Assembly (NCBI GenBank): GCA_035546615.1
Contig: DASZWM010000006.1
Location: 128,001 to 192,000, forward strand
Length of the DNA: 64,000 nucleotides
Reading direction: 5' to 3'
Source of the DNA: Minisyncoccota bacterium
GTDB taxonomy: Bacteria > Patescibacteriota > Minisyncoccia > Phycocordibacterales > SBAW01
Every line of letters starts with the position of its first letter. The stretch's first letter is position 1. The position numbers and the translations under genes are program-made. A model generated the notes under the pieces. That model had not been told where the DNA came from, searched no databases, and worked only from the letters and a program-made list of their open reading frames with translations. Positions 10,568 to 27,337 of this stretch are shown here, piece by piece.

Positions 10568-11203
10568 ATGAAGATAACGAAATTCGGCCACTGCTGCCTT
10601 CTGCTCGACATCGACGGCGTGAAGATACTCACTGACCCGGGCTCTTTTACGACAGAGCAGAACGCCGTAACGGGCCTCAACGCGGTGCTCATTACCCACA
10701 GCCATGGCGATCACTATCACGCCGAATCCGTGCCCCAGCTTGTGAAAAACAACCCCGAGGCAGTATTCGTAACTAACGGCGAGGTGGGGAAGCTGCTTGA
10801 AACGCAAAGCGTTCCGTACACGAAAGTCGGCGACGGCGGATCGACGGGCATCAAAGGAGTGAAAATAGAAGGCTTCGGCGCCAAGCATGCGGAAATATAC
10901 GGCGAGATGGGCCAGGTCGAGAACACGGGCTACTTCGTGGGAGAGAAATTCTACTTCCCGGGCGACAACTTTTATGATCCGGGCAAGCCGATAGACGTCC
11001 TCGCGCTTCCGGTCGCCGCCCCGTGGCTCAGGATAAAAGACGTCATTGATTTCGCGAAAGCGGTGAAAGCCCGCACGGCCTTCGGCGTGCACGACGGCAT
11101 GATAGTGCCGTCCTTCCGCAGCTTTGCAGGGAACGCGCTCAAGATGTTCGTACCCGAGACCGAGTATGTGGCTATGCAAGATGGGGAAATAAGAGAGTTC
11201 TAA
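10568..11203 (+). CDS. Metallo-beta-lactamase (MBL)-fold metal-dependent hydrolase
   Basis: HSHGDH (HxHxDH) motif, ~210 aa; TATACT hexamer 7 nt upstream of the ATG (leaderless-type). Confidence 0.8.
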
Positions 11204-11243
11204 TTTGTGTACCGCAAAATAGCCAAAAGCGTATAGTAGTGGC

Positions 11244-12383
11244 ATGGAGCCGCTGGCTAACAAGATACGCCCCAAAACGCTTGATGAGTTTGTGGGCCAG
11301 GAGCACCTGGTCGGCCCCGGCAAGCCCCTGCGCGTGGCTATAGAGGAAGGGCACCTATTCTCTTTTATATTGTGGGGCCCGCCGGGCTCAGGCAAGACGA
11401 CGCTGGCGCGCATCTACGCCAATGCTCTGGACGCCGAGTTCTACGAGCTTTCGGCGGTCGACTCCGGCAAGGAGGACATCAAGCGCATCGTAGGCGAGAA
11501 GGGGGCGCTGGATTTCTCCACGAAGCCTAAAATCCTATTCATCGACGAGATACACCGCTTTAATAAGGCCCAGCAGGATTTTCTCCTGCCGTACGTGGAG
11601 CGCGGCGAGCTCACTCTCATTGGGGCAACGACCGAGAACCCCAGCTTCGAGGTTATCTCGGCGCTCCTGTCGCGCTGCCGCGTGTTCGTGCTCAATGAGC
11701 ACGGCGAAAGCGAGATGGATTCCATTATCAAGCGCACGAAGCTGAAGGTCCCGAAGGATGCGCGCGACTGGCTCGTGCAGATGGCCGGCGGCGACGCGCG
11801 GCAGGCCATTACGACGCTTGAGAATACGCAGAAGCTCTATGGCAAGATAACGGTGGATACCCTCAAGGAAAGCATACAGTCCGCGCACCTGCGCTACGAC
11901 AAGAAGGGCGAGGAGCACTACAACACTATCTCGGCGTTCATAAAGAGCATGCGCGCCAGCCAGCCCGACGCGGCGCTGTACTACCTGGCGCGCATGGTCG
12001 AAGCGGGTGAGGATCCGCTCTTTATTGCCCGGCGGATGGTGATATTCGCCAGCGAAGACGTAGGGCTGGCGCAGCCGACCGCGCTTGTAGTAGCCAACGC
12101 GGTGTTCGAAGCATGCGACAAGATAGGCTACCCCGAGGCGGCAATAAACCTGGCGCACGGCGTGGCGTATCTGGCGAGCTGTAAAAAGGACCGCAGCGCG
12201 TACGACGGATATTTCGACGCGCTGGACGACGTACGAAAATTCGGCAACCTCCCTATACCGCTCAAGATCCGCAACGCGCCGACGAAGCTGATGAAAGACC
12301 TCAAGTACGGCAAAGGCTATGAAAGATACGACAAGGAATCCTACCTGCCCGAAAAGCTGAAGGGCAAGAAATATCTGAAATAG
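11244..12383 (+). CDS. rarA: Replication-associated recombination protein A (AAA+ ATPase RarA/MgsA)
   Basis: Walker [12 protein letters not shown]; LADKIRP-like N-terminus ([19 protein letters not shown]); MgsA C-terminal domain. Confidence 0.9.
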
Positions 12384-12386
12384 CAA

Positions 12387-12425
12387 AGCCGCCGGATGCT
12401 TACGCGCATTCCGGCGGCTTCTTCT
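12387..12425 (+). terminator. Rho-independent terminator after rarA (AAGCCGCCGGA...TCCGGCGGCTT plus CTTCTGTTGT)
   Basis: 11-bp stem followed by a T-rich stretch. Confidence 0.65.
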
Positions 12426-12505
12426 GTTGTCGGTCGTATATCCGAAGGTGCTTTTGGGCCGGCTTCGTGCCGGTGCCTGCGCAATCCGTGCACTTCTTGT
12501 ACCAC

Positions 12506-12916
12506 TCACGGATCGGGCGGCCCCTCTCCGGCCGCAGCAGCCACCCCATGCCGCGGCATCGCCTGCAGATGCGCACGCGCTCTCCTTTCTTTCAGGTGAT
12601 GGCGGTGCTCTTCGTGGCCGACCCGGGCGGCGAGGATCGCTTCCGCCGCTTTGTGCCACACCAGGGTCCAGAGCTCGGGAGTGATACTCTCCTTGCGGTT
12701 CCATTGGCGCGGGACCAGCAGGAGCACGGGATTATCGGCCGACGGCTCGTCCAGGGAAAATTCCCAGGCATGACCCTCGACCAGCACCCGCGCCCTGTTC
12801 CTGGTCGCGAGATAGAGACGAATGATGCCGGGGAATCGCTCCTCGGCATCAAAGAGTTGCTCGTCCGTGAGGATGAACTCGCGGAGCTTTACTTGGGACG
12901 GCGAGGTGCTGCTCAT
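12506..12916 (-). CDS. Hypothetical protein (136 aa), second gene of a two-gene operon
   Basis: Protein-like composition on the minus strand (MSSTSPSQVKLREFILTDEQLFDAEERFPGIIRLYLATRNR...HEEHRHH), whereas the overlapping plus-strand ORF 12467-12922 is R/P-rich shadow. GGAGG 9 nt before the ATG. Confidence 0.5.
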   Translation of the reverse strand: MSSTSPSQVKLREFILTDEQLFDAEERFPGIIRLYLATRNRARVLVEGHAWEFSLDEPSADNPVLLLVPRQWNRKESITPELWTLVWHKAAEAILAARVGHEEHRHHLKERRARAHLQAMPRHGVAAAAGEGPPDP

Positions 12917-12918
12917 CG

Positions 12919-13134
12919 CTAGTCGCCTCCGATTTTCCGCGTGCGCTCGAGATCATTGCGGGTGTATCCCCGCTTGCGATACCGGGCGTACTGGCGGTTT
13001 TGCTCGCGCTCCTGCGACACCTGCCGGGGATCAGGAAGTTCGCGGGGCGACTGCGGCTGCTGCCGCGGCGCGCCGTGAGGCGAGTAATCAAGCGGCGTCG
13101 AGCCGCTCGCCCATTTGCTTGTGTGATGGTCCAC
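12919..13134 (-). CDS. Hypothetical small basic/Gln-rich protein (71 aa, GTG start), first gene of the two-gene operon
   Basis: GCGGAGG SD 6 nt before the GTG. Ends 2 nt before the downstream gene's ATG. Low-complexity R/Q/P-rich sequence. Confidence 0.4.
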   Translation of the reverse strand: MDHHTSKWASGSTPLDYSPHGAPRQQPQSPRELPDPRQVSQEREQNRQYARYRKRGYTRNDLERTRKIGGD

Positions 13135-13186
13135 TGCGGGCCTCCGCGTTGACTGTGAAATGAACGGATGAAATTGCGACCGGTAC

Positions 13187-13195
13187 TCTAATATC
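13187..13195 (-). promoter_or_regulatory. Extended -10 promoter (TGATATAAT on the minus strand) driving the 13134..12506 operon, ~60-nt leader with an SD
   Basis: Reverse complement reads TTTTGTGATATAATAG. Confidence 0.5.
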
Positions 13196-13263
13196 TATTA
13201 TATCACAAAACTCCCTAAATTGCAAGTGAAGCGGGGAGGGAAGTGGATAACCCTGAAAAAGCC

Positions 13264-13716
13264 TTATGAGAAGAGGCTTTCAACGATGCCTTTGACGACG
13301 GTGCCGTCGGCTTTGCCCTTGAGGTCCTTCATGAGGGCGCCCATAACCTTGTTGGCGCCGGATTTGTCGGTAACGCCCATTTCAGCGGCCTTGGCTTTGG
13401 CGGCGGCGGTTATTTCGTCATTGGACATCTGTGCGGGGAGGAAGCCTTCGAGTATCGCGAGCTCGGCCTTCTCGCCCTCAGCGAGTTCCGGGCGGCCGCC
13501 CTTCTCGAACTGCTCAATGGAATCTTTGCGCTGCTTGGAGGCGCGGATGATAACGCTCATAAGCTCGTCGTCGGTGAGCATGGCGTCCGGGCCTTTGCCC
13601 CTGGTTACCGCCTCGTTGGTCGCGGCGGCGGAAAGCCCGCGCAAAACCGAAAGGCGCACGGCGTCCTTGGCGCGCATCGCGTCCTTAATGGCCTCCTTGA
13701 GTTCTGGGTGTGTCAT
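13264..13716 (-). CDS. yqeY: GatB/YqeY domain protein (start at MTHPELKEAIKDAM)
   Basis: MTHPELKEAIKDAMRAKDAVRLSVLRGLSAA...EGFLPAQMSNDEITAAAKAKAAEMG matches the YqeY family. The first 18 codons in the track ORF are unlikely. Confidence 0.8.
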   Translation of the reverse strand: MTHPELKEAIKDAMRAKDAVRLSVLRGLSAAATNEAVTRGKGPDAMLTDDELMSVIIRASKQRKDSIEQFEKGGRPELAEGEKAELAILEGFLPAQMSNDEITAAAKAKAAEMGVTDKSGANKVMGALMKDLKGKADGTVVKGIVESLFS

Positions 13717-13753
13717 ATGATTACAAATTTGTGTACCTGAACTATAGCAAAAA

Positions 13754-13762
13754 TGGTACCAT
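13754..13762 (+). promoter_or_regulatory. Extended -10 (TGGTACCAT) 6 nt upstream of the rmuC ATG; leaderless-type promoter
   Basis: TGG plus TACCAT (TAnnnT), then ACCGCC, then ATG 13769; part of the palindrome ATGGTACCAT. Confidence 0.45.
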
Positions 13763-13768
13763 ACCGCC

Positions 13769-14872
13769 ATGGACCCGCTCGTGTTACTTCTTATCGTCCT
13801 GGTGCTTGGAAACGCCGCGACTATCTATCTGCTGTGGAAGCGCACGCAGACTACTGACGAGGGCGGCCCTGCCGACACCCAAGGCTTTATGCTTCTGCAA
13901 AACCAGCTGTCGGAGCTATCGCGCGCGATGGAGAACAAGCTGGGCGAGGGCACGAACCGCATGTTCGAGGGCATGAAGACGCAGTCCGAGCAGTCGGAGC
14001 GCCTTATCGCCACCATCAGCCGCCAGGTAACCGAACAGCTGGTCGAAGTCACTAAGGGCGTTACCGCGACGCAGGAGTCCACCAAGCAGGTGTTTACCAT
14101 CGCAGAGCAGCTCCAGAATCTGGAAAAGGTGCTCAAGCATCAGAAGCAGCGCGGCAACCTGGGCGAAGCGAGTCTCGAGCTCATTCTGGCCAACATCTTG
14201 CCGCCGGGGGCGTATCAGATGCAGTACGAGTTCCCGGGCGGGGAAACGGTGGACGCCGTCATACAGACCAAAGAGGGCGTTATTCCGATAGACGCCAAGT
14301 TCAGCCTCGACAACTACCAGCGGCTCATCAATGCGATAGACGATGTGCAGAAGGCGGAGCTTGAAAAGCAGTTCAAGAACGACCTCAAGCTGCGCATCGA
14401 CGAAACGAGCAAATACGTGCGCCCCAAGGACGGCACCCTGCCGTTCGCCTTCATGTACATTCCGGCCGAGGCCATCTACTACGACCTGCTTATAAACGAA
14501 GTCGGGTCGGTCAAGGTGAACACGCGCAATCTCATCGATTACGCGTACAACGAGAAGAAAGTCATCATCGTTTCGCCGACGACCTTCGCCGCGTACCTGC
14601 AGTCGGTCCTGTACGGCTTCAAGGCGTTCAAGATAGAGGAACAGGCAAAGGACATCGCCAAGAACGTGGAGGCGCTCGGCCGCCATATAAACGCGTACCA
14701 GGACTTCTATAAGAAGCTCGGCGCGTCGCTCTCGACCACGGTGAACCACTTCAACGCGGGCAGCAAAGAATTGGGCAAGATTGAAAAGGACGTCCTGCGC
14801 ATCGACGCCTCGTCGGAACTGGCGATAGACATCCCCATGCTCGACAAGCCAATCCTGGAAGGGAAGGACTAA
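13769..14872 (+). CDS. rmuC: DNA recombination protein RmuC
   Basis: N-terminal TM helix, long coiled-coil, conserved RmuC C-terminal region (GNLGEASLELIL...IPIDAKFSL...FAFMYIP). Confidence 0.88.
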   Translation: MDPLVLLLIVLVLGNAATIYLLWKRTQTTDEGGPADTQGFMLLQNQLSELSRAMENKLGEGTNRMFEGMKTQSEQSERLIATISRQVTEQLVEVTKGVTATQESTKQVFTIAEQLQNLEKVLKHQKQRGNLGEASLELILANILPPGAYQMQYEFPGGETVDAVIQTKEGVIPIDAKFSLDNYQRLINAIDDVQKAELEKQFKNDLKLRIDETSKYVRPKDGTLPFAFMYIPAEAIYYDLLINEVGSVKVNTRNLIDYAYNEKKVIIVSPTTFAAYLQSVLYGFKAFKIEEQAKDIAKNVEALGRHINAYQDFYKKLGASLSTTVNHFNAGSKELGKIEKDVLRIDASSELAIDIPMLDKPILEGKD

Positions 14873-14965
14873 AAAGAAAAACGGCCGCTCCCGGGAGGAA
14901 CGGCCGCCAGTGCCCTGGTTCTCGGCCAGGGCATTCGGGCAGGGGAGCGACCCGCCTGCCGAAAT

Positions 14966-15073
14966 TCATTGAATCCGATGGTCTTTCACCTCGGGCATTC
15001 CTTTTGCGCGGAAAGCCCAGATGACAAGGCCGCCCACCATCGCGAGGAACAGCAGTAATGCAAGGTCAAACAT
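14966..15073 (-). CDS. Candidate 35-aa single-TM small protein (MFDLALLLFLAMVGGLVIWAFRAKGMPEVKDHRIQ)
   Basis: Perfect SD GGAGGT 5 nt before the ATG. Candidate promoter TTGAAC-N16-TACTCT upstream (15120-15147 on the minus strand). Hydrophobic helix. Below the ORF-track cutoff. Confidence 0.4.
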   Translation of the reverse strand: MFDLALLLFLAMVGGLVIWAFRAKGMPEVKDHRIQ

Positions 15074-15170
15074 GCCGACCTCCCGCCTTTCGCGTTGATG
15101 CACCTTCAGTACCGCCTATAGAGTACTCCTCTCCGGCGGGAGTTCAAGAGCGCAATCCACTCGCCGCGAA

Positions 15171-15198
15171 TTGCAGTTTTTATATTTTGTGGTATGGT
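15171..15198 (+). promoter_or_regulatory. Sigma-70-type promoter TTGCAG-N16-TATGGT with TGG extension (TGTGGTATGGT) for the MaoC-like gene; ~58-nt leader ending in a GGAGGAG SD
   Basis: -35 at 15171-15176, -10 at 15193-15198. Confidence 0.5.
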
Positions 15199-15256
15199 AT
15201 TCCCGGATGCGGCGCATTCCGCGCGTATCGTTTCTCGATAATAGTGGAGGAGAATT

Positions 15257-15847
15257 ATGGTCATCGAAGCGCCGGGAATGCCGACAAAGGCTGGGACAGG
15301 ATCGTGTCCGTGGCAGCCGGGGTATGAGTTTTCCTTTGATCTGGGCGCATTCAGCCGAGTCGAGGTTGCGGAGTATGTGCGGCGGGTCAGAGATCCCAAT
15401 GCCATCCATATCGATGCCGAAGCGGCTCGCAAATTCTGCGTTGCCCGCGGCATCGCGGTCCGAATGCCTAAGGAATGGATCGTTCCCGGCATGGCGCCTC
15501 TGGATCGCCTGCCCGGCCTCTTCGTCGACAAGTTCGGTCAGAACACGCACCTGGTCGAGATCAAACGTACGCTCTTTGTGCAGCCCTGCTTTACGGGCGA
15601 AATGCTCCGCGCCGACTGCGCTATCGCGGATGTCCGCAGCGTCGGTCAGGCGGACTGGCATATTTCGTGCCGGATACGCATTTCGGTTGCGGATGCCGAA
15701 GAAGATATCGTGACGGTCACAGGCTCGGCCGCCTTCAGAACGCCGAAGACGGGCTTACGCGCCGATGACCCGGCACTCGATAGAACCGGCATTCCGGCGG
15801 CCGAGAAGCTGCTGGAAGACGACCATGGCGGCGTCTCGAAGCACTGA
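15257..15847 (+). CDS. MaoC-like (R)-specific enoyl-CoA hydratase / hot-dog fold protein
   Basis: DPNAIHIDAEAARKFCVARGIAV (MaoC dehydratase motif); SD GGAGGAG before the ATG. Confidence 0.7.
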   Translation: MVIEAPGMPTKAGTGSCPWQPGYEFSFDLGAFSRVEVAEYVRRVRDPNAIHIDAEAARKFCVARGIAVRMPKEWIVPGMAPLDRLPGLFVDKFGQNTHLVEIKRTLFVQPCFTGEMLRADCAIADVRSVGQADWHISCRIRISVADAEEDIVTVTGSAAFRTPKTGLRADDPALDRTGIPAAEKLLEDDHGGVSKH

Positions 15848-15933
15848 AGCGTCGGCAGCTCAAGGCCCGAGGAGGAATCTCCCCGGGCCTTGCTTTTTTC
15901 CTTATATCGGGCTATATTTTCCCCACAACAGCC

Positions 15934-16257
15934 ATGGCACAGGAATTCGCTATCATAGAGACCGGCGGGAAGCAGTATATGGTTTCCGAGGGCGACACCG
16001 TCAAAATCGAGAAGATCTCGGGCACCTTCGCCGAGGGCGATACGGTAGCCTTCGACAAGGTCCTCATGCTCGACAACGGCGCCGATACGACCGTCGGCGA
16101 GCCGTATATCAAGGGCGCCAAGGTGTCCGCGCAGATACAGAAGATAGCGAAGGCCAAGAAGGTCGTCGTCATCAAGTACAAGGCAAAGAGCAACTATTTC
16201 AAAAAGCGCGGCCATCGCCAGCCGTTCTTCGAGGTCAAGATCTCGAGCATCCGGTAA
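15934..16257 (+). CDS. rplU: 50S ribosomal protein L21
   Basis: FAIIETGGKQYMVSEGDTVKIEKI...FDKVLML...RGHRQPFFEVKI. Confidence 0.95.
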   Translation: MAQEFAIIETGGKQYMVSEGDTVKIEKISGTFAEGDTVAFDKVLMLDNGADTTVGEPYIKGAKVSAQIQKIAKAKKVVVIKYKAKSNYFKKRGHRQPFFEVKISSIR

Positions 16258-16269
16258 AGAAGCCGCCCC

Positions 16270-16297
16270 GAAGGGCGGCTTTCTCCTCGCTATAGCA
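16270..16297 (+). terminator. Rho-independent terminator directly after rplU (AAGCCGCCCC-GAA-GGGGCGGCTT plus TCTCC)
   Basis: Perfect 10-bp GC stem. Confidence 0.7.
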
Positions 16298-16311
16298 TGA
16301 GCGCAGGCCGG

Positions 16312-16476
16312 TCAGCGGGCGGACATGCCGTACTTCCAGCCGAAAAACACGCCCGCCGCGATCAGGATCACGGCCAAAAGCGGGGCGGAATATAAAAGGC
16401 GGCCCCACGTTCTTCTGTACTCCTCGGCCTGGCCTTTATCCCAAGCCGCGAGGTCGTCTTCGTCTACGGCACGCAT
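16312..16476 (-). CDS. Hypothetical small membrane protein (54 aa from MRAVDEDDLAAWDK...), downstream of recR
   Basis: GGGAGG SD 6 nt upstream of this ATG; C-terminal TM helix LLAVILIAAGVFFGW. Confidence 0.45.
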   Translation of the reverse strand: MRAVDEDDLAAWDKGQAEEYRRTWGRLLYSAPLLAVILIAAGVFFGWKYGMSAR

Positions 16477-16532
16477 GCGTACCTCCCTTCGTTTCTCCTG
16501 CGGGCAACTATACAGCATTTTCGGGAACTCTT

Positions 16533-17150
16533 CTAGCTGCGCGAGCTAAGCGCGCTGGCGATAGTGTCCGGGTCGGCGTATTCTATCTCGCTGCCGGTCG
16601 AGAGGCCGCGGCCGAGGCTTGAGAGCCTGAAGTTGAACCCTTGGCTCATGGGGCGAAGCTTCTCGCTCAGAAGCTGGCGGGTATGGTCGCCCTCGGTCGT
16701 GGCGGAGAGGCCCAAAATAAGTTCGGTCAAAACCAGGTCGCTGCCGTCCCGCTCTACCCGTGCTACCAGCTCGCGCATGCGGATGTGGCTTTGGGGCTCC
16801 TCGGCCGCCAGCGGCACGGTGCCGCCCAGCACGAAGTACACGCCCTTGAAGCCGCTTCTCTCAACGTTGTCGATATCCGCGTCCTTTTCGACGACGAACA
16901 GTATCCCTTTCTCGCGCCTGGAGTTGCCGCAGATATTGCAGAGGACGGTGTCGTCGGCGCTTTTGACAGACCAGCGGAAACACTCCGAGCACTGAAAGGT
17001 GTTGGCGCCCAGCTTGCCCAAGTCCTGCGCGAGCGCCGCGCGAAAGGCGCCCGGCTGAACCAGGAGGAACTGCACGAACCGCCGCGCCTGCCGGGGCCCT
17101 ATGCCGGGAAAGCGCTCGAATGCCTGGGTTAGCCGGTCTATCGGGTTCAC
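16533..17150 (-). CDS. recR: Recombination protein RecR (GTG start)
   Basis: LTQAFERFPGIGPRQARRFVQFLL (HhH), Cys4 zinc finger CSECFRW...CNICG, Toprim region. Confidence 0.92.
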   Translation of the reverse strand: MNPIDRLTQAFERFPGIGPRQARRFVQFLLVQPGAFRAALAQDLGKLGANTFQCSECFRWSVKSADDTVLCNICGNSRREKGILFVVEKDADIDNVERSGFKGVYFVLGGTVPLAAEEPQSHIRMRELVARVERDGSDLVLTELILGLSATTEGDHTRQLLSEKLRPMSQGFNFRLSSLGRGLSTGSEIEYADPDTIASALSSRS

Positions 17151-17165
17151 CCTTCTATTTTACAG

Positions 17166-18578
17166 CTAAAAGTCGTGTTTGGCTTCCTCGAAAACGCCGA
17201 AGTCGGTCTTTGAAAGCGATTCGAAGTTGGCGTGCTTGTCGTTGAACATGAGCTCCACCTTGCCCACGGGGCCGTTGCGGTGTTTTTCTATCAGAATCTC
17301 AGCGATGCCGGTCGGCTCGGCGCCGTCCCCGCGCTGCTGCTTGTCTTCGCGGTGGATGAACATCACCACGTCGGCATCCTGCTCGATGGAGCCGGAGTCG
17401 CGCAGGTCCGAGAGTCTGGGCTTGCCGCCGCGCTGCTCCACCGCGCGGGAAAGCTGCGAGAGCGCAAGCACCGGCACGTCGAGCTCGCGGGCGAGTATTT
17501 TGAGCGAGCGGGAAATTTCCGTTATCTGCTGGACCATTGAGTCCGACGCGCGCGTAGTGGTGGGCATCATGAGCTGGAGATAGTCCACGACCAGGAGCCC
17601 GAGGCCGTTTTCGCGCTTGAGGCGCCGCGCCACCGCGCGCATCTTGAGGATATTGTTGCCCGCCTGGTCGTCTATGAAAATCGGGGCGGAGGAGAGGCGG
17701 TCGTACGCGTCACGGATGCGCTCAAAATCCTCGCTGTTCTCCTTTATGCGGCCGACGCGCCAGTCCCACGCGCTTACGCGCGCCTCCGAGGCTATCATGC
17801 GGTCCACGAGCTGCTGGGCGGACATCTCAAGCGAGAAGATGCCCACGGTCGTGCCGTGCTTTACCGCGGCCTGGCGGGCGATATCGAGCGCCAGCGCGGT
17901 CTTTCCGACTGACGGCCGGGCGGCGAGGATGATGAGGTCGCTTTTCTGAAGGCCGGCGAGCATGTTGTCGAGGTCAGGGAAGCCGGTGCGCACGCCCCTG
18001 ATCTCGCCCTGGTGCTCCTGCAGGTGCGCGTAGTGCTCCCATGCCTTGCCGAGGCTCTCGCGCAGTGACGTGAACTTGGTGAGGCTCGGCATATCGGTCA
18101 CCTCGTAGATGCGCTTCTCGGCCTTGTCGAGCGTCTCCTCAAGCTCGCCGCTTTCGTCGAAGCCAAGCTCCGCCACGAACTCGCCGGCGTCTATCAGGTT
18201 GCGCAGCATGTACTTCTTCTGCACCTGGTTGGCGTAGTGGCGGGCGTTGGATGCCGCGGGCACTTCGCTCACGAGCTCCGCGAGGTACGCGACGCCGCCG
18301 ACGCCTTCAAGCTGCTTGCTGTCGGCCAGGCACGCGCGCACGCTCTCGATGTCGATGGGCTCGTTCTTGCCCCAGAGCCCGACCATCGCGCGAAAGATGA
18401 TGCGGTGCTTTTCGCTGTAAAACGCGTCCGCCGAAATGATGTCCACCGACTCGGCCATGCCTTCCGGCCGCACCATAACGGCGCCCAGGAACGCGCGCTC
18501 GGTCTCTATCGTCTGCGGCGGCATGCGCAGCGGGTCTATCTTTTTCGGTTTCGGCGCCTGGGGAGGAAACTTTGCCAT
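17166..18578 (-). CDS. dnaB: Replicative DNA helicase DnaB (start at MAKFPPQAPKPKK; the track's 73-codon extension to 18797 is probably non-coding)
   Basis: GFPDLDNMLAGLQKSDLIILAARPSVGKTALALDIA (Walker A), DnaB N-domain ERAFLGAVMVRPE; RecA-like C-terminus. Confidence 0.9.
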   Translation of the reverse strand: MAKFPPQAPKPKKIDPLRMPPQTIETERAFLGAVMVRPEGMAESVDIISADAFYSEKHRIIFRAMVGLWGKNEPIDIESVRACLADSKQLEGVGGVAYLAELVSEVPAASNARHYANQVQKKYMLRNLIDAGEFVAELGFDESGELEETLDKAEKRIYEVTDMPSLTKFTSLRESLGKAWEHYAHLQEHQGEIRGVRTGFPDLDNMLAGLQKSDLIILAARPSVGKTALALDIARQAAVKHGTTVGIFSLEMSAQQLVDRMIASEARVSAWDWRVGRIKENSEDFERIRDAYDRLSSAPIFIDDQAGNNILKMRAVARRLKRENGLGLLVVDYLQLMMPTTTRASDSMVQQITEISRSLKILARELDVPVLALSQLSRAVEQRGGKPRLSDLRDSGSIEQDADVVMFIHREDKQQRGDGAEPTGIAEILIEKHRNGPVGKVELMFNDKHANFESLSKTDFGVFEEAKHDF

Positions 18579-20777: not shown

Positions 20778-20806
20778 GGCTGAAACCTACCAACTGCGCG
20801 GCCCTT

Positions 20807-21718
20807 TTACAACCATCCGCGGTGGCGGAAGTACATGAATATGCTGATAGCCATAAGCCCCATGACGCCCACCACCATCCAGAAGCCGTAGGGGTTGTGC
20901 ATAAGCGGCAGGTACTGAAAGCTCATGCCGAACAACTGCCCGACGAACGTCAGCGGCAGGAAGACGAACGCGGTCACGGTGAGCGTCTTCATTATCTCGT
21001 TCTGCTTGGTCGAGAGCAGGGAGTTGTTCGTTTCGCGCAGTTCCAGCAGGGAAGTGTGCAGGTTCTCAATGGTTCGCTCGACGCGCTCCTCGGTGCCGAT
21101 GAGGTCGCGCAGGTAGTAGGCGAACTCCGGGCCGAACAGGCGCGTGGCGACCGGCTCAAGCGAGGTAAGCATTTCCTTATGCGGGGCGAGCGCCTCGCGG
21201 AAGTCGTGCAATACGCGGCCCATCTGGGATATCTCGATGACCATCTGGCGCTCGCGGCCGCTGAAGACGCGCTCCTCAATGTCCTGAAGCCGCTGAGACA
21301 CGGTGTGCGACTCGCTTATAAGCGCCTCATACAAGGAGCGCGCCATGGAAGTAAAGAGATGCCCGCCGTGCTGGTGGGTAATGGGGCGGCCGAGCACGGT
21401 CGTTACCTCGAACGCCTGCGCGAAGGCGTGGAGCGGGTCTACGGTGCCGTAGCGCGTGGTAATAAGGAAGTTCTTCCCGATGACGAAGTCTATTTCCTGC
21501 TCCTGCCGCTGGTTCATGCCCCGCAAGATAGGGAAGTGGAGGATAACGTAAATGATGTCGCCGCGCCGCTCCACCTTCGGCTTGAAGGAGGGCACCAGAA
21601 GCTCCTCGGCAATAAGCGGGTCGATGCCGAATTCCTGCATGAGCGCGCGCACTTCCGCCGGCGTAGGCGCGACTAAGTCTATCCAAGCAGCATGCTTCTG
21701 CCCGTAGCGGGTTAACAT
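20807..21718 (-). CDS. corA: Magnesium/cobalt transporter CorA (start at MLTRYG; the track ORF extends to 21937)
   Basis: C-terminal two TM helices with a GMNF-variant GMSF and YGFWMVVGVMGLMAI...FRHRGWL; ~300 aa fits CorA. TGGTATAAT sits 6 nt upstream of this ATG. Confidence 0.85.
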   Translation of the reverse strand: MLTRYGQKHAAWIDLVAPTPAEVRALMQEFGIDPLIAEELLVPSFKPKVERRGDIIYVILHFPILRGMNQRQEQEIDFVIGKNFLITTRYGTVDPLHAFAQAFEVTTVLGRPITHQHGGHLFTSMARSLYEALISESHTVSQRLQDIEERVFSGRERQMVIEISQMGRVLHDFREALAPHKEMLTSLEPVATRLFGPEFAYYLRDLIGTEERVERTIENLHTSLLELRETNNSLLSTKQNEIMKTLTVTAFVFLPLTFVGQLFGMSFQYLPLMHNPYGFWMVVGVMGLMAISIFMYFRHRGWL

Positions 21719-21724
21719 GTGCAA

Positions 21725-21770
21725 ATTATACCAGGGAATTTTCTTGGGCCATGACGCGCTGTGATATACT
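21725..21770. promoter_or_regulatory. Back-to-back divergent extended -10 promoters: TGGTATAAT (minus strand, 21725-21733) for corA and TGATATACT (plus strand, 21762-21770) for ctpA, each 6 nt from its ATG
   Basis: Both genes lack an SD; the hexamer-to-ATG distance equals the typical -10-to-TSS distance, so leaderless mRNAs are predicted. Confidence 0.5.
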
Positions 21771-21776
21771 ATGTGC

Positions 21777-23006
21777 ATGTCAAAGCAGAAGTTGTGGGCG
21801 CTTGGAGGCTCGGCAGTTGTTGCGCTCGCCTTTGTGGCGGGCGTATACACCGGCCTGGGCGAGCGCGTTGCCAATACCGTTTCCGCCCAGTCGGTCAATT
21901 TCCTCGAGCCGACAAATGCGCCGGCCGATGTCGACATGCAGAAGCTCTGGAAGGCGTGGTCTCTTTTGCGCGACGATTACGTCCCGACGCACGCCTCGAC
22001 CACGTACCCGACCGCCGAAGAACAGCTCTGGGGCGCCATCGGCGGCCTTACCGACAGCTTCGGCGACCCGTACACGGTTTTCCTGCCGCCGGCGGAAGCC
22101 AAGACCTTTCAGGAGGACATCAGCGGCGCGTTCGAGGGCGTGGGCATGGAGATGGGAACTAAAGACGGCCAGCTGGTGGTCGTGGCGCCGCTTAAGGACT
22201 CTCCCGCGGAGAAGGCCGGCATTCACAGCGGCGACGCGATACTTTCAATAGACGGCAAAGACACGGGCGGCATGTCTGTGGACGACGCAATCAAGCTCAT
22301 CCGCGGCAAAAAGGGCACGGTCGTGACACTCAGCATTGGCCGCGAAGGCAGCGCGACCCCGTTTGAGGTCAAGATAACGCGCGACACCATCAGCATCCCG
22401 GTGCTCAAGAGCTACATGCGCGAGGACGGCATCTACGAAATCGACCTGTACAGCTTCTCCGCCAACTCGGCCGACCTGTTCCGCGGCGCCCTGCGCGAGT
22501 TCATCAAGAGCGGCTCGAACAAGCTCATGTTCGACCTGCGCGGCAATCCGGGCGGCTACTTGGAAGCGGCCGTTGATATGGCGAGCTACTTCCTTCCGGT
22601 AGGCGACACGGTCGTAAGCGAGGATTTCAAGGGCAAGCGGCCGGCCAACGTGCACCGCAGCGCGGGCTACAACGTGTTCGCGGGCAAGAACCTCCATATG
22701 GCAATCCTGGTGGACCAGGGCTCCGCCTCGGCTTCGGAGATTCTTTCAGGCGCGCTCCAGCAGCACAATGTCGCCAAGCTCGTCGGCACCCGCACGTTCG
22801 GCAAGGGCTCCGTCCAGCAGCTCATGGAGCTCGGCGGCGGGGCGGAGCTCAAGATAACTATCGCTCGCTGGCTTACCCCGAATGGCTCGTCCATCTCCGA
22901 CGGCGGCCTCACGCCCGACATTCTGGCGACAACCACCCCCGAGCTCATCAAGGCCGGCAAAGACGTGCAAAAGGATGCGGCAGTGAAGTGGCTTCTCTCG
23001 CAGTAA
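21777..23006 (+). CDS. ctpA: Carboxyl-terminal processing protease (S41 family, PDZ domain)
   Basis: N-terminal anchor, PDZ region, catalytic region GSASASEILSGAL...GTRTFGKGSVQ; the start may be 21771 or 21777. Confidence 0.9.
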   Translation: MSKQKLWALGGSAVVALAFVAGVYTGLGERVANTVSAQSVNFLEPTNAPADVDMQKLWKAWSLLRDDYVPTHASTTYPTAEEQLWGAIGGLTDSFGDPYTVFLPPAEAKTFQEDISGAFEGVGMEMGTKDGQLVVVAPLKDSPAEKAGIHSGDAILSIDGKDTGGMSVDDAIKLIRGKKGTVVTLSIGREGSATPFEVKITRDTISIPVLKSYMREDGIYEIDLYSFSANSADLFRGALREFIKSGSNKLMFDLRGNPGGYLEAAVDMASYFLPVGDTVVSEDFKGKRPANVHRSAGYNVFAGKNLHMAILVDQGSASASEILSGALQQHNVAKLVGTRTFGKGSVQQLMELGGGAELKITIARWLTPNGSSISDGGLTPDILATTTPELIKAGKDVQKDAAVKWLLSQ

Positions 23007-23088
23007 CTCAGCAATTGTGTACTTCTCCCTAAGGTGATAGTGTCTTACCGGTGTTCTTAAGGCAGGACCTGACACAGGAGGAGACGCA

Positions 23089-23328
23089 ATGCCGCTTTGG
23101 ATAATTATCTTGGCCGCCCTACTCGTCGTGGCGCTCATCTACCTACTGCTTGGCTACTTTACCCTTCGCATGAGGGTTGGTCTGCAGGGACAGGGACTTC
23201 CTGTGCAGGTCGGAACCACGGTCTGGCACTTCTGGTTTTGGTGGGTAACGATCTTCTGGGTTTTACCGGCCTTCCTCGCGTACAAGCAAGGTGCTGAAGT
23301 GGTTCAAACCCAATACAGCGTTTTTTGA
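23089..23328 (+). CDS. Hypothetical small membrane protein (79 aa, 2 TM, Trp-rich)
   Basis: AGGAGGAG SD 7 nt before the ATG; two hydrophobic helices. Confidence 0.55.
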
Positions 23329-23390
23329 AGCCCGATGCTGCGCGCCCGACCAGGATTGTCGGGCGCGCATTAATTTTGTATAGTCATCGC

Positions 23391-23837
23391 ATGAAAGTAA
23401 TACTGCTTAAGGACGTGCGCGGGGTGGGTGCGCACGGCGACGTAAAGCACGTAGCCGACGGCTACGCGCTTAACTTCCTCTTTCCGCACCGGATGGCGGA
23501 GGCCGCGACGGAAGACAAGATACAGAAAATAGCCGCGCAGAAGGCGGCGCACGAGGCCGAGGCTCAGAAGGCCGAAGCCGAGCTGACGGACAAGATAATG
23601 GGCCTGCGCGGCAAGCGCGTCGCTCTTTCCGCCCGCGCCACCGAAAAGGGAGGGCTTTTCAAGGCGCTCGCGGCCAAGGACATTGCCCGCGCCATCAAGG
23701 CCGAGCACGATATCGATATTCCCGAGGATTCCGTCTACCTTCCGGACCCCATAAAGACAGTAGGGGAGCACCAGGCGCTCCTTAAGAGCAAGACCCAGAA
23801 GGTCGAGCTCGCCGTCTCTGTAGTCGCTGCTGCCTAA
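23391..23837 (+). CDS. rplI: 50S ribosomal protein L9 (start at MKVILLKDV)
   Basis: [38 protein letters not shown] hexamer 6 nt upstream of the ATG; upstream hairpin GCGCGCCCGAC...GTCGGGCGCGC (23345-23368). Confidence 0.92.
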
Positions 23838-23856
23838 TCGAACAGAGGTTCAAAAT

Positions 23857-23888
23857 CAAAAGGCCCGCCTTACCGGCGGGCCTTTTGC
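23857..23888. terminator. Bidirectional terminator between the convergent rplI and rpmA (AAAAGGCCCGCC-TTAC-CGGCGGGCCTTTT)
   Basis: Symmetric hairpin with A/T tracts on both sides. Confidence 0.8.
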
Positions 23889-23901
23889 GTATGTATTTAA
23901 A

Positions 23902-24180
23902 TTACTTGGCGATAACGTCAACGACCGGGCGGGTGGAAGTGGTGCCGTTGAAATTCTGCTTGCGGGCGGTGCGGAAGGAGACAATGCCGCTGATCAGCGA
24001 GAAGATGGTATGGTCGCGGCCCAAGCCGACATTCTTGCCTACCATGTAGCGGGTGCCGCGCTGGCGGACGATAATGGCGCCGGGCTGGGCTGCTTCGCCG
24101 GCATAGAGCTTAACTCCCAGGAATTTTGCCTGTGAGTCGGTAAGGTTTTTCGCTGATCCGCCTGCTTTCTTATGTGCCAT
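23902..24180 (-). CDS. rpmA: 50S ribosomal protein L27 (with a ~10-aa C-terminal extension)
   Basis: [12 protein letters not shown]...LGVKLYAGE...IIVRQRGT...[13 protein letters not shown]. Confidence 0.93.
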
Positions 24181-24204
24181 GGTATGGTATGTTTAAGCCC
24201 CAAC

Positions 24205-24384
24205 ATGATAGCAGATTTAGGGAAACAAGGCAAGCGATGGCTCGACTTCCTCCTTATACCGGCTATAGTTATCCTAGTCGGGGCAGCCTGCTTCGGCTTG
24301 GGGCGCCTTTCGGCCCTGAGCGAGCAGAAGCCCGGCCTCGTCATACACCCCGCCACGGGCCAAACCAATGATGAAAACCACTAA
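24205..24384 (+). CDS. Hypothetical small membrane protein (~59 aa from MIADLGKQGKRW...). Start uncertain (the track uses 24172)
   Basis: Single TM helix LLIPAIVILVGAACFGL; upstream TGGTATGGTAT extended -10-like element at 24181-24191. Overlaps DUF454 by 17 nt. Confidence 0.35.
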   Translation: MIADLGKQGKRWLDFLLIPAIVILVGAACFGLGRLSALSEQKPGLVIHPATGQTNDENH

Positions 24385-24616
24385 ACGCGCCGTCGTCCTC
24401 ATAATCGCCATCCTCTTCCTCATACTGGGGGTAGTGGGGCTTGTCCTTCCGTTCCTGCAGGGCCTTCTATTCCTCGCGGTCGGGTTCATCCTCCTGTTCT
24501 TCCTCTTTCCGTCTCTGCGCGAGAAGACCCAGAAGCACACGGTAAAGTACCCGAAGTTCCACGCGATGATGCTCAAGGTAGAGGACTTTATCGGCCGCAT
24601 CTTGGGAGACATCTAG
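24368..24616 (+). CDS. DUF454 / YbaN-family small inner-membrane protein
   Basis: GVVGLVLPFLQGLLFLAVGFILLFFLFPSLREK matches the YbaN-like G..G..LP.LP pattern. Confidence 0.65.
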   Translation: MMKTTKRAVVLIIAILFLILGVVGLVLPFLQGLLFLAVGFILLFFLFPSLREKTQKHTVKYPKFHAMMLKVEDFIGRILGDI

Positions 24617-24617
24617 T

Positions 24618-25220
24618 ATGCTTGCCGTTGACGTAGAATCCTCCGGCACGGAGGCCCACAAGCACTCCATTTTGAGCCTCGGCGCCGTCGACCTCGGCAA
24701 TCCGTCCAGGCCCTTTTTCTACGAAGAGTGCCGCGCCTGGGACGGCGCCAAGCTCGAGCCCGAGGCATTTGCGGTGAACGGCTACACCGAAGCGACCGCG
24801 ACCGACCCGACCAAACAGTCCGAAGCCGACCTGGTGCATAAGTTCAAGGAATGGGCTATGCAGTCCGACGACCGCACCTTTGCGGGGCAAAACGTTTCCT
24901 TCGACCGCGATTTCCTTAAGTACGCCGCCGAGCGCGCGGGGCATACCGACTGGCCGTTCGCACACCGCACCATCGACACGCATACCCTGTGCTGGATGCA
25001 CATGGTAAAGCGTGGCCTTACGCCGCCTCTGGACCCGGTAAAGAAGCGCTCCGCGCTCGATTTGGACGCCATTCTGGTCTACTGCGGCATTCCGGACGAG
25101 CCGACGCCGCACAATGCTCTCACGGGCGCCAAGTCCCATGCCGAAGTCATCTCGCGCCTGTTGTACGATAAGAAGCTCCTGCCCGATTTCGAGCAGTTCG
25201 ACATACCCTGGCTCTCATAG
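24618..25220 (+). CDS. 3'-5' exonuclease, DEDDh (DnaQ-like) family
   Basis: Exo I AVDVESSGT, Exo II FAGQNVSFDRDFL, Exo III HNALTGAKSHAEV. Confidence 0.8.
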   Translation: MLAVDVESSGTEAHKHSILSLGAVDLGNPSRPFFYEECRAWDGAKLEPEAFAVNGYTEATATDPTKQSEADLVHKFKEWAMQSDDRTFAGQNVSFDRDFLKYAAERAGHTDWPFAHRTIDTHTLCWMHMVKRGLTPPLDPVKKRSALDLDAILVYCGIPDEPTPHNALTGAKSHAEVISRLLYDKKLLPDFEQFDIPWLS

Positions 25221-25239
25221 CCGTTCTTTGGTAGGGTCA

Positions 25240-25741
25240 AAATAGAGCAACCGCTCTGTCAAAAAGAAGGAATATCCGATGACAGGAATAGTCGATACAC
25301 GCCGCGCATGTCTAAGATGCGGTAGCCCCATCTCATCCGCAAGCAGCCCGCTTGTTGTGCAAGAGCGAGGCTTCAGCGCAGAAGCGTGCGTGCCCGCTGC
25401 GATATGTCGCAATTCGGCCTGTGGCCAGGTCACTGCGGATCGCGCAAGTGTGGCGAACTCATCGTTGCGGTGGATGTACGGGCGCACCCCGGTCACTTTC
25501 GTTCCGGGCCCGATTTCCCGGTCTAATGAGTTTTTGCTTACTCCTACGGCCGCGCAGCTCCATCGGGCGTAAGGCTCAACGGAAACGTCACCTCCCCGTC
25601 GCGTCCAGTACAGGATGCGACGGTTTTGCTTCGCAAACCCGCGACCCCGCCTCACAATCGCTTTAGCGATATGTTCCGGCCTTCAATTCCGGGCGCAGGC
25701 AAAGCAGTTTACCTGCTCGGCCCTCCTTCGTTAACACTCAG
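25240..25741 (-). other. ~500-nt region with low coding potential between the exonuclease and tRNA-Pro; candidate structured non-coding RNA (or pseudogene). Strand is guessed from a minus-orientation terminator-like hairpin at 25244-25258
   Basis: The only ORFs here are a Cys/Ser/Arg-rich 97-aa frame and a 146-aa GTG frame whose GC3 (~60%) equals bulk GC, versus ~75-80% in neighbouring real genes. Many local hairpins; no RNase P, tmRNA or SRP consensus found by eye. Confidence 0.25.
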
Positions 25742-25812
25742 TCGGGCCGCCGGGAATTGAACCCGGTCTACATGCACCCCATGCATGTGTACTGCCGGTA
25801 TACTACGGCCCG
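25742..25812 (-). tRNA. tRNA-Pro (anticodon GGG)
   Basis: Folded by hand on the minus strand: acceptor CGGGCCG/CGGCCCG, D-arm GTAT/GTAC, anticodon stem CATGC/GCATG with loop ATGGGGT, variable loop TAGA, T-arm CCGGG-TTCAATT-CCCGG, discriminator A. Confidence 0.8.
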
Positions 25813-25891
25813 TTTCTTCCAGTATTTACTACCATACCTCACTCTGTTAGTGTTGCGCTAGTAACGTACCTCAATAACCGGAGACTGCGCC

Positions 25892-26674
25892 ATGGCTGAC
25901 AAGCCGCTTATTCCGAGTGCCGCATTCCATATCGACGAGATCAAGAAGCTCCGGGCCTCCAAGGAGGAGCGGAGGAAGACCTATGAGGCGGGTCTCGCCG
26001 AGGATCAGCAGGATATCGACGAGCACCTCGAATACCTGCGCGATAATCTCAAAGCCGGGGATACTACTGGCGACCGCATAACCGACCATGTACTGACCCA
26101 TTGGGGCGGCGACCCCGAGCGGGAAGAGTGGTATCGGGCTGCAGACGCCCGGCTCAAGGGCCACGGAGGGCAACTCGTACTGACCTTCGCGACCCAGCTG
26201 GTCGCAGAAGGTCCGTTCATCCGGCACATGGAGCACCCCGGGGCCAAACACATCATGGCCCCGCCGCGTCCGGCCAAAAAGCTGGTTACGCATTATCAGC
26301 TGGCGGTCCTGACCGGCGAGGAGCTCGTCTTGACCGATGCCTCGCCGCGCCTGCCGACCAAACAGTACATCGTCTGGTCGGTAAAAGAGGGTAACTCAAG
26401 CCCCCCGACCGTCGTCAACAGCCTCATTCCGAACGAGATGTTGCCGCTGCCGGCGAAGCCGGTATCAGGGGCGAGACCTCCCCAGTTCTCCCATCTTCTT
26501 GTCGACATCGACGACGTCGACGAAGACGTGCCGGTCGACAACCCGCTTTTTGTGGGCGACGAAGAGGTGGGCGAGCTCTTCAAGAAGAACGGCTGGCCCG
26601 AGAGCTTCTGGATACAATGCCTCAACAAGCTGGGCCGCTACGATCTCGTAGCGCCCGACCATCAGACTGCGTAA
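25892..26674 (+). CDS. Hypothetical protein (260 aa)
   Basis: GGAGA 8 nt upstream of the ATG; acidic, protein-like composition; no family recognised. Confidence 0.5.
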   Translation: MADKPLIPSAAFHIDEIKKLRASKEERRKTYEAGLAEDQQDIDEHLEYLRDNLKAGDTTGDRITDHVLTHWGGDPEREEWYRAADARLKGHGGQLVLTFATQLVAEGPFIRHMEHPGAKHIMAPPRPAKKLVTHYQLAVLTGEELVLTDASPRLPTKQYIVWSVKEGNSSPPTVVNSLIPNEMLPLPAKPVSGARPPQFSHLLVDIDDVDEDVPVDNPLFVGDEEVGELFKKNGWPESFWIQCLNKLGRYDLVAPDHQTA

Positions 26675-26687
26675 GCGGTCTCTAACG

Positions 26688-26722
26688 ACAACCCCCGCCG
26701 GGTCATACCGACGGGGTTTTTC
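26688..26722 (+). terminator. Rho-independent terminator after the 25892 gene (CCCCG...CGGGG plus TTTTTCTTT)
   Basis: Stem plus T-run. Confidence 0.6.
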
Positions 26723-26734
26723 TTTGCCAGCAAA

Positions 26735-26776
26735 AAAGAAAAACCGCGCGTCCCCGGTGCCAGGGAACGCGCGGCT
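26735..26776 (-). terminator. Rho-independent terminator for the minus-strand gene 26819-27160 (CCGCGCGT...ACGCGCGG; T-run on the minus strand)
   Basis: 8-bp GC stem; the minus strand reads stem plus TTTTTCTTTTTT. Confidence 0.6.
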
Positions 26777-26818
26777 CTTGCTTCGGCGTCGGTTGCCGAA
26801 CTTCCGCCGAAGCGAATG

Positions 26819-27160
26819 TCATGACTCAAGCAGAGGCTCCAGCAGCACTATGCTGAACCCGTCGTCCTTGGGGACGAAGTAGTGCAGCAGATACCACTGC
26901 CCGCCGTGCTTGAAGCGGACGACGGTCCTGGGGCTCCATGCCTCGGGTCCGTCGCCAACCATGATCGTGTCCGCCCCGCACGGCTCCGGAGGAATCACGT
27001 CGCCCTTCAGGTCTACCGCCAGCGCAATGGCGTCCGGCGCGTTCGGGCAGACGTAGCCCGTCATTTCCACTGGAGGCGGCGTCGGGGGGAGGCATGATAG
27101 CACGCCCATACCTGCCGATAGCACGGCGCCGCAGTACATGACTATCCCTGCTGTCATCAA
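26819..27160 (-). CDS. Hypothetical secreted / lipoprotein-like small protein (113 aa)
   Basis: Signal peptide MMTAGIVMYCGAVLSAGMGVLSC with a lipobox-like LSC; GGGAGGT SD 6-7 nt upstream. Promoter TGCTATAAT on the minus strand at 27201-27209. Confidence 0.55.
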   Translation of the reverse strand: MMTAGIVMYCGAVLSAGMGVLSCLPPTPPPVEMTGYVCPNAPDAIALAVDLKGDVIPPEPCGADTIMVGDGPEAWSPRTVVRFKHGGQWYLLHYFVPKDDGFSIVLLEPLLES

Positions 27161-27337
27161 AGAACCTCCCGTACGCTCGGGCCTCCGAGCTCGTACACAA
27201 ATTATAGCACCGGGTGAATCTTGAGTGAATAGAGGGCATGGAAGGTCGGCAAAACCCCTAAAAAGCTTTAAAACAAAGGCATATCGCCGTCAATTCACGC
27301 GTGTTTCAGGACCCTGTTTTTTGTCAAGGGACCCCTA

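Follow-up and report, generated by a model that had tools for sequence, protein, structure and literature searches.

Closest described systems and the element at this locus

Class II sites of the CRP/FNR family are 22-bp palindromes with the half-site TGTGA, centred near -41.5. Other elements placed at or instead of the -35 region are the '-44 AGCA' element of Bacillus, associated with Spx and the RNA polymerase alpha subunit's C-terminal domain (alpha-CTD), and the RecA-NDp motif of Actinobacteria, tTGTCRgtg-N8-TAnnnT, through which PafBC controls DNA-repair genes in leaderless-rich genomes. Here we describe an 11-bp element, AATTTGTGTAC (core TTGTGTA/TGTGTA), that recurs in a 64-kb window of a Minisyncoccota bacterium (contig DASZWM010000006.1, positions 128,001 to 192,000; the window is this whole stretch of 64,000 nucleotides). 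Homologues of its RarA assign the window to Patescibacteria/Paceibacteria, with a Kaiserbacteria-like affiliation. The organism belongs to the Candidate Phyla Radiation (CPR), whose uncultured members have tiny genomes encoding very few regulators; to our knowledge, almost nothing is known of transcription control in this radiation. Four copies lie upstream of rarA (site 1), between the divergent genes yqeY and rmuC (site 2), and upstream of the genes for a 79-amino-acid (aa) membrane protein (site 3) and a secreted or lipoprotein-like orphan (site 4). At these sites the element stands in a definable geometry to promoter cores, it is conserved in orthologous regions with discrete gain and loss, and its core is enriched in the promoters of relatives in a position- and strand-specific manner. 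We regard it as a strand-specific cis-element, most likely the asymmetric site of a putative transcription factor or RNA-polymerase-associated factor, a reading in which our confidence is about even. That a protein binds it, which protein this would be and the sign of regulation are what we infer from these patterns.

Like class II CRP/FNR sites, the element has a TGTG core and is located (at -43 to -32 here and at -47 to -37 in relatives) where the -35 is weak or absent, and the same site would serve as an operator when it lies over -10/+1, as at site 4. Unlike them, it is not accompanied by another half-site, TCACA or the like, whether 6 nt away or at a different spacing, the window copies are centred about -37, and no CRP/FNR-family gene was seen among the window genes. 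With the Spx and PafBC elements it shares a short, asymmetric, strand- and position-specific sequence, a place at or instead of the -35, and occurrence at a subset of promoters; like the PafBC motif, it begins TTGT. However, the sequence differs, the distance to the -10 is 19-20 nt here versus 8 nt for RecA-NDp, and the targets, unlike those of PafBC, belong only partly to DNA metabolism. None of the window genes was recognised as one for Spx, PafBC or a WYL protein.

The operator of the HsdC controller protein of Mollicutes, TTTGTGTTAAAATAGTGTTAAC, is a direct repeat of GTGTTAA with an 11-bp period (PMC5282649). As there, the element has TTTGTGT followed by an A-rich stretch and a promoter location in a reduced genome with few regulators, but site 1 lacks the second repeat, site 2 has only a weak one (CTATAGC, 4/7), and there is no restriction-modification context.

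The DnaA box, a 9-mer (TTATNCACA, reverse complement TGTGNATAA), is likewise asymmetric with a TGTG core. In contrast to the box, the motif has a conserved AATT flank lying outside those nine positions, and TGTGTA is enriched at -50 to -29 of promoters (see below) while the sister words TGTGGA, TGTGCA and TGTGAA are not. Measured against TGTGNA(T/A)AA, the window 9-mers TGTGTACCG, TGTGTACCT, TGTGTACTT and TGTGTACGA fail, having CCG, CCT, CTT and CGA at positions 7-9 in place of TAA. Canonical boxes, TGTGGATAA, do occur elsewhere in the window at 1538 and 60206. Separately, canonical DnaA-box-like 9-mers (TGTGGATAA, GTGGACAA, TGTGGAAAA) are found, single or in tandem, 10-25 nt upstream of the -10 in other Paceibacteria, before rarA in L004, L008 and L012 and before rmuC in L120, L151, L156 and L158 (our related loci are numbered L001-L172; among those named below are L163, ERZ27254241 k141_266658, L107, Ca. 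Adlerbacteria RIFCSPHIGHO2_12_FULL_53_18, L164, GCA_035546075.1, and L171, GCA_035546575.1). These boxes suggest DnaA control or a nearby origin in those lineages.

Recurrence of the motif in the window

The window was searched for AATTTGTGTAC exactly and with at most one mismatch, and separately for the 8-mer TTGTGTAC. Three exact copies were found, at 11202-11212 (+), 13726-13736 (+) and 27193-27203 (-), with no others at up to one mismatch anywhere in the window. The 8-mer occurs four times, and its additional copy at 23015-23022 is part of AATTGTGTAC at 23013-23022 (+), which is one T shorter. All four copies (three of AATTTGTGTAC, one of AATTGTGTAC) are intergenic and all are oriented toward the downstream gene, with 31 nt between motif end and start codon for rarA (ATG 11244), 32 nt for rmuC (ATG 13769), 66 nt for the 79-aa membrane protein (ATG 23089) and 35 nt for the site-4 gene (ATG 27157). 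An earlier sequence-only reading had reported intergenic, sense-oriented copies, and the word search and gene context bear this out. Two of its details change: the start that it gave for the site-4 gene, 27160, is a TTG one codon upstream of the ATG, and a partial match, TATATATGTGTACTTC, is indeed inside the mpg coding sequence (coding also in the relative L163), at about 8130-8145 and not 8142-8157.

How far this recurrence exceeds chance depends on the question asked. For the word itself the excess is clear: AATTTGTGTAC was seen 3 times at up to one mismatch against 0.25 expected, and TTGTGTAC 4 times against 0.54, and in neither case did any of 100 shuffles reach the observed count. However, the window holds 213 different 11-mers with at least three copies, nearly all GC-rich and coding, and when the approximately 11 kb of intergenic DNA was dinucleotide-shuffled, some 11-mer reached at least three copies in 131 of 1000 shuffles (13%). 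The number of copies in the window alone is therefore weak evidence once all 11-mers are allowed for, and the description of the recurrence as far above chance was, for the window alone, an overstatement. It also gives some footing to an explanation we consider unlikely, that the motif has no dedicated function and reflects chance recurrence in AT-rich intergenic DNA together with local copying, its identity between orthologues being that of constrained, compact promoters. Since the window statistic is weak, the case must rest on independent data, namely conservation in orthologous regions and a pre-specified enrichment test in relatives.

The only other intergenic word in the window that is not of low complexity and has at least three copies is the 12-mer CGACCCCGCCTC, with four, at 7771 (-) and at 25642, 48943 and 57982 (+), three of them intergenic.

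Promoter architecture and placement of the motif

All transcription starts given here are predicted. In the window and its relatives the genes are mostly leaderless, with a TAnnnT hexamer followed by 6 nt and the ATG. A position matrix built from 351 TAnnnT-N6-ATG promoters (window and 160 related loci) has T and G at -15/-14, that is, an extended -10, and a pyrimidine at -1; the -35 positions carry essentially no information. The clade consensus over -16 to -1 is (A/G)TGnTAnaaT, 6 nt and ATG, and leaderless mRNAs predominate. As there is no general -35 information, the motif is not part of the general promoter core. A literature search for CPR promoter motifs found nothing beyond one core-promoter survey of 49 species.

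At site 1 the motif shares bases with the TAA stop codon of the preceding MBL-fold gene and occupies -42 to -32 of the leaderless rarA start, its end lying 19 nt 5' of the -10 hexamer TATAGT (11232-11237); the hexamer, 6 nt and the ATG make up the promoter core at 11232-11246 (+), and this TAnnnT-6-ATG geometry is found in most rarA orthologues. At site 2, where the motif extends to AAATTTGTGTACCT, it occupies -43 to -33 of the leaderless rmuC start and ends 20 nt 5' of the extended -10 TGGTACCAT (13754-13762), which is again followed by 6 nt and the ATG; a TATAGCA/TATACCA block upstream of rmuC is widely conserved in relatives. The rmuC and yqeY promoter cores are back to back (13741-13771, both strands), with the extended -10 of yqeY, TGCTATAGT, running from 13749 down to 13741 on the minus strand. 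On that strand TGCTATAGT is followed by 4 nt and then GTACACAAATT, the predicted yqeY start being the A of GTAC, and the motif lies between this -10 and the yqeY ATG (13716), covering both the predicted start and the short 5' untranslated region (UTR). The products of the three genes were assigned by Pfam to MgsA/RarA, YqeY and RmuC. The geometry is thus near-fixed at two unrelated genes, the motif beginning at -42 (rarA) and -43 (rmuC).

The rarA and rmuC promoters are also alike downstream of the motif, with 12 of 19 bases identical over -31 to -13, tied for the highest value among 66 promoter pairs. This likeness would suit common descent or conversion, as the explanation by local copying would have it. 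A single promoter cassette for sites 1 and 2 was considered and rejected; the identity is suggestive, but it is tied with another pair.

A sigma-70 -35 region is a TTGACA-like hexamer 16-18 bp upstream of the -10. The spacer between TTGTGT and the -10 is 21 bp at rarA and 22 bp at rmuC, the value of 17 bp is found at site 3 only, and at site 4 the motif overlaps the -10, so the motif was rejected as a -35 hexamer. That its position relative to the -10 varies had been noted from the sequence alone, and holds: relative to the predicted start the motif is at approximately -38 at rarA and rmuC, at -35 at site 3 and at approximately -4 (-9 to +2) at site 4. A hexamer of the core promoter would not be expected to vary in this way, and a site bound by a factor is the better fit.

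Conservation in orthologous regions

In front of rarA, the window, L163 (RarA 93% identical) and L165, L082 and L083 (92%) all have the same TAATTTGTGTACCGCAAA, with variation in the bases that follow. Between yqeY and rmuC, AAATTTGTGTACCT is identical at 14 of 14 positions in L081 (RmuC 91%) and L107 (76%); L107 lacks the motif upstream of rarA. In both orthologous alignments the motif is the longest invariant run and the neighbouring bases vary. Its distance to the yqeY ATG is 8, 11 or 0 nt in three lineages, and in L163, L171 and L090 the yqeY-rmuC block is missing as a clean indel of approximately 20 nt. Our data describe a modular element that is preserved wherever it occurs and that close relatives have gained or lost.

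For recurrence by chance and copying it can be said that relatives conserve whole promoter regions, the motif not being conserved alone. Against it stand the motif's being the longest invariant run in both alignments and the sharp boundary of the block, with its changing distance to yqeY. The latter also led us to reject an N-terminal extension of yqeY through the motif, since the distance from motif to ATG differs by 8 and 11 nt between relatives.

Enrichment of the core in promoters of relatives

De novo hexamer analysis of the region from -50 to -29 in 312 non-redundant leaderless promoters returned TGTGTA, ATTTGT and AATTTG as the three most enriched words, TGTGTA being observed 11 times against 0.7-1.5 expected. 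In the pre-specified test, the word was fixed beforehand and the window and its orthologues were excluded, leaving 302 promoters, which were compared with 300 shuffles. TGTGTA was found 9 times at -50 to -29, against a shuffle mean of 1.47 and a maximum of 6, with no occurrence at control positions and only two of the reverse complement. A scan from -150 to +100 placed 12 of 21 occurrences of TGTGTA within -50 to -31, and no peak was seen for its reverse complement, TACACA. The word begins at -47 in four independent promoters and at -45 to -37 in the others. Such strand and position specificity points to recognition by an asymmetric protein and not to DNA flexibility or base composition. The significant and strand-specific result of the pre-specified test on promoters of other lineages is also one of the points that we set against chance recurrence with local copying.

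About 4% of promoters carry the core. In the relatives these include promoters of rarA (L007, L041), dnaB (L131), an FAD oxidase, several membrane proteins and, with the variant TGTATA, mnmA. In their -10 regions the promoters with the motif resemble all others, and about half of them have TGn. The gap from TGTGTA to the -10 is 14-34 nt overall (20-21 nt at rarA and rmuC, 16 nt at site 3, 29 nt in the group that begins at -47), with overlap at site 4. A bound factor fits such a varying gap better than a hexamer contacted by sigma would. In 2.1 Mb of sequence, the association of TGTGTA with any downstream TGnTAnnnT was modest and not distinctive.

These data also bear on a simpler mechanism, in which the RNA polymerase holoenzyme itself reads the element, as a distal -35-like or 'minus-40' sequence or as the -35 of an alternative sigma factor, without a separate regulator. 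It would then make up for the absent -35 at some of the extended -10 promoters. The strict strand and position bias at -47 to -37 of leaderless starts would be expected of such a signal, as would the start at exactly -47 in four independent promoters; the clade has no general -35 signal, TTGTGT at site 3 is exactly 17 bp from a TG-extended -10, and there is a gene for an alpha subunit that includes the C-terminal domain. We nevertheless hold this mechanism to be improbable. A gap of 14-34 nt to the -10 hexamer is too variable for sigma contact, the -10 regions of the promoters concerned are ordinary, the motif at site 4 lies over the -10 and the start and not upstream of them, and the core is present on only that small fraction of promoters. 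UP elements, which are A/T tracts and not TGTGTA, also count against it.

As a separate observation, the rarA promoters of L005 and L007 contain A(A)TT(T)GTCAA at -35 to -26, with TTGTCA just 14 bp from a TG-extended -10, and in L007 ATTGTGTAA stands immediately 5' of this sequence.

Sites 3 and 4 and the start-region alternative

The two remaining copies are at lineage-specific envelope genes. Site 3 begins 7 nt past the stop of an S41 peptidase gene, and its TTGTGT is 17 bp 5' of a candidate extended -10, TGaTAGTGT (23035-23043), which is followed by a leader with AGGAGG. In L091 and L093 the 79-aa gene and its intergenic stretch are absent and rplI directly follows the peptidase gene. The sole database match of the site-3 protein is from the same genome (Logan run SRR12170516, with a contig 100% identical to 21616-24953).

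Site 4 spans -9 to +2, its motif copy sharing three bases with the 3' end of the -10 TATAAT and covering the predicted start. The promoter, TTCACT-17-TG-c-TATAAT (27229 down to 27201), has 10 of 12 sigma-70-like matches, a joint best score tied with two other sites between 10.5 and 28 kb, and the predicted +1 is the A of GTAC, 7 nt past TATAAT. The predicted 5' UTR (27155-27196, minus strand) comprises a hairpin GUACGAGCUCGG...CCGAGCGUAC (27196-27171), a Shine-Dalgarno sequence GGAGG (27169-27165) and the ATG. The hairpin is not exceptionally stable (-14.1 kcal/mol, z = -0.7). The product, 112 aa from the ATG at 27157, has a signal-peptide-like N-terminus, and no homologue was found among 5.8 billion proteins. 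The likeness of sites 3 and 4 to sites 1 and 2 stops at the 10-11 nt of the motif, a further point against local copying.

The predicted starts at site 4 and yqeY raise the question of whether the motif belongs to the start region. It could be a discriminator or 'start' element; alternatively, its other strand, GUACACAAAUU, could form a short element in the 5' UTR of divergently transcribed genes, yqeY for one. At both promoters the predicted start is the A of GTAC (for yqeY, in TGCTATAGT, 4 nt, GTACACAAATT), a similar sequence, GTATACAAAC, stands just before the start codon of a DUF378 gene (33679-33689), and L107 and L131 have the reverse motif directly next to the start codon of a divergent gene. 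We consider this explanation very unlikely, however. There is no divergent gene at rarA, and the putative antisense -10 there (CTATTT) is not conserved, the plus strand reading ATAGCC in the window versus GTAGGT in L163. Around site 3 neither strand offers a suitably spaced -10. Of the sense hexamers just 5' of the motif, only the one at site 4 has the conserved A at position 2, and what is enriched in the clade is TGTGTA 30-40 nt upstream of starts; neither the starts themselves nor the reverse complement show such an excess. Two narrower forms were rejected. A discriminator or 'start' element fits site 4 only (-9 to +2), the motif ending 19-20 nt 5' of the -10 at rarA and rmuC. An antisense promoter with its start at GTAC fits the geometry of yqeY and of rarA (TGGCTATTT, 4 nt, GTAC), but L163 does not conserve the antisense -10 of rarA, and there is none at sites 3 and 4. 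The sequence-only reading had offered a transcription-factor site or an initiator/discriminator element; we favour the former, by inference, and find the latter applicable to site 4 alone.

At the DUF378 membrane-protein gene itself, the sequence at 33679-33689 is AGTTTGTATAC, with 2 mismatches to the motif, and it abuts the start codon (33675, minus strand). On the reverse strand it reads GTATACAAACTGCT-ATG, an arrangement reminiscent of yqeY.

The favoured reading, its mechanism and the points against it

The intergenic location, the orientation and position bias and the conservation between orthologues are the properties of a factor-binding site or upstream activator, and site 4, over one of the three best sigma-70-like promoters, is in a classical operator position. 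At rarA and rmuC, a protein bound at about -43 to -32 would occupy the place of the contacts made by sigma region 4 or the alpha subunit, and from about -40 it could recruit or stabilise polymerase at promoters that have no -35, like a class II activator. Bound over -10/+1 at site 4, or just past the predicted yqeY start, the same protein would block initiation. The element would thereby define a small, evolutionarily fluid regulon of rarA, rmuC/yqeY and two lineage-specific envelope proteins, which in relatives would take in rarA, dnaB and membrane proteins.

Several observations weigh against a regulatory site of this kind. The closest relative with data, L164 (RarA 96%), has lost both the rarA and the rmuC site; in its rarA region the motif positions have diverged (6 of 12 identical) and the -10-proximal part is retained. 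In L171 (RarA 90%) a 33-nt GC hairpin interrupts the rarA motif, ATTTGTG[hairpin]TACCGCAAAATAGG, and leaves the promoter core untouched. The loss in L164 and the split in L171 with the core kept indicate that the element is dispensable. All four copies in the window lie inside 16 kb, the remaining 48 kb having none, and the 16-21 kb locus of each motif-bearing relative has one copy only, so a large regulon is not demonstrated. The downstream genes have no clear common functional theme. The sequence-only reading had proposed looking for a palindromic partner or a conserved regulator, and the search produced neither: no inverted or direct partner was seen at any of the four copies (by inspection) or in the copies of relatives, and Pfam scans of essentially all window genes recognised no transcription factor or other DNA-binding protein apart from MraZ, and no candidate regulator. 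A single asymmetric 11-mer with no partner is unusual for bacterial regulators. The clustering within 16 kb and the loss of sites in L164 would also be in keeping with chance and local copying.

The L171 insert is a 33-nt GC-rich imperfect hairpin, CCCGTCTCGCCGAAGACGCCGAGTCGAGGCGGG (L171 9927-9975), exactly inside the motif, and its excision restores ATTTGTGTACCGCAAAATAGG. Together with the clean presence or absence of approximately 20 nt at yqeY-rmuC, it brings to mind the footprint of a mobile module, either a miniature insertion or a target site for GC hairpins, spreading among intergenic regions. GC-rich hairpins also directly follow TTGTGTAC on its 3' side at site 4 and in L130 and L147, GTAC stands on either side of the site-4 hairpin, and the genes next to sites 3 and 4 are lineage-specific. 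The chance that this explains the motif seems to us slight. The copies are similar over 10-12 nt only, with no shared flanks, terminal inverted repeats, related hairpins or nearby transposase, GTAC has an ordinary frequency (observed/expected 1.03), and a position bias relative to promoters would not be expected of a mobile element. The same ratio led us to reject GTAC as a depleted restriction site. Repetitive extragenic palindromes and miniature inverted-repeat transposable elements were also rejected, the flanks being unrelated beyond 10-12 nt and the hairpins that follow some copies being mutually dissimilar.

For the binding site of a factor, known operators were compared by inspection. 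Palindromic operators (LexA/SOS, CRP/FNR, Rex TTGTGAA-N4-TTCACAA, NrdR) were set aside, no partner half-site being present at any copy; among promoters of relatives, TGTGTA-N7-TACACA occurs in L131 dnaB only. MraZ boxes, which comprise at least three GTGGG-type direct repeats with a period of 10-11 bp, do not match either, the motif being a single GTGT unit with no periodic partner. In the window, textbook MraZ autoregulatory boxes are found at 1538-1600, upstream of mraZ (1638-2072), as GTGGA/GTGGG/GTGGC repeats with a 10-bp period that flank a TATACT -10. Rfam covariance models run on the whole window gave two tRNAs only above gathering thresholds, and the motif was accordingly rejected as a known structured RNA.

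Other features near the sites

The S41 peptidase gene before site 3 forms a divergent leaderless pair with a CorA-like gene (21718, minus; 21777, plus), 58 bp apart and with back-to-back extended -10s. The promoter of the CorA-like gene reads TATAATTTGCAC-ATG, and TATAATTTG is common to this promoter and site 4. Downstream of site 3, rplI probably starts at 23391 and not 23325, with its own TATAGT-6-ATG promoter, and a strong hairpin directly before that promoter (23339-23369) would terminate the transcript of the 79-aa gene.

Site 4 lies in a region (25741-32000) in which the genes after a tRNA-Pro are orphans or poorly conserved, namely those at 25892-26674, at 26819-27157 (with no homologue) and at 27448 (an SLT-domain protein). 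A low-GC stretch at 28-32 kb (0.49-0.51) and a second low-GC patch at 44-46 kb are both possible acquired islands.

Implications for the Candidate Phyla Radiation

The cis-element is real, probably functional and of a known general kind, not previously described for this radiation. If it is only a local, dispensable operator, the finding is an ordinary one. A broader version, to which we give little credence, is that (AAT)TTGTGTA is a clade-wide 'minus-40' element of Paceibacteria, read by a polymerase-associated factor or a divergent surface of the polymerase and replacing the -35 at a defined subset of the leaderless extended -10 promoters. If true, a major uncultured radiation would have a promoter element, core or proximal, that is new, and the motif would not be an ordinary local operator. 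The analysis offers two handles on transcription in these bacteria, the description of a leaderless, extended -10, -35-less promoter architecture, and a strand- and position-specific motif kept at some DNA-maintenance promoters (rarA and rmuC, with dnaB in a relative). Both could lead to a CPR regulator and its regulon.

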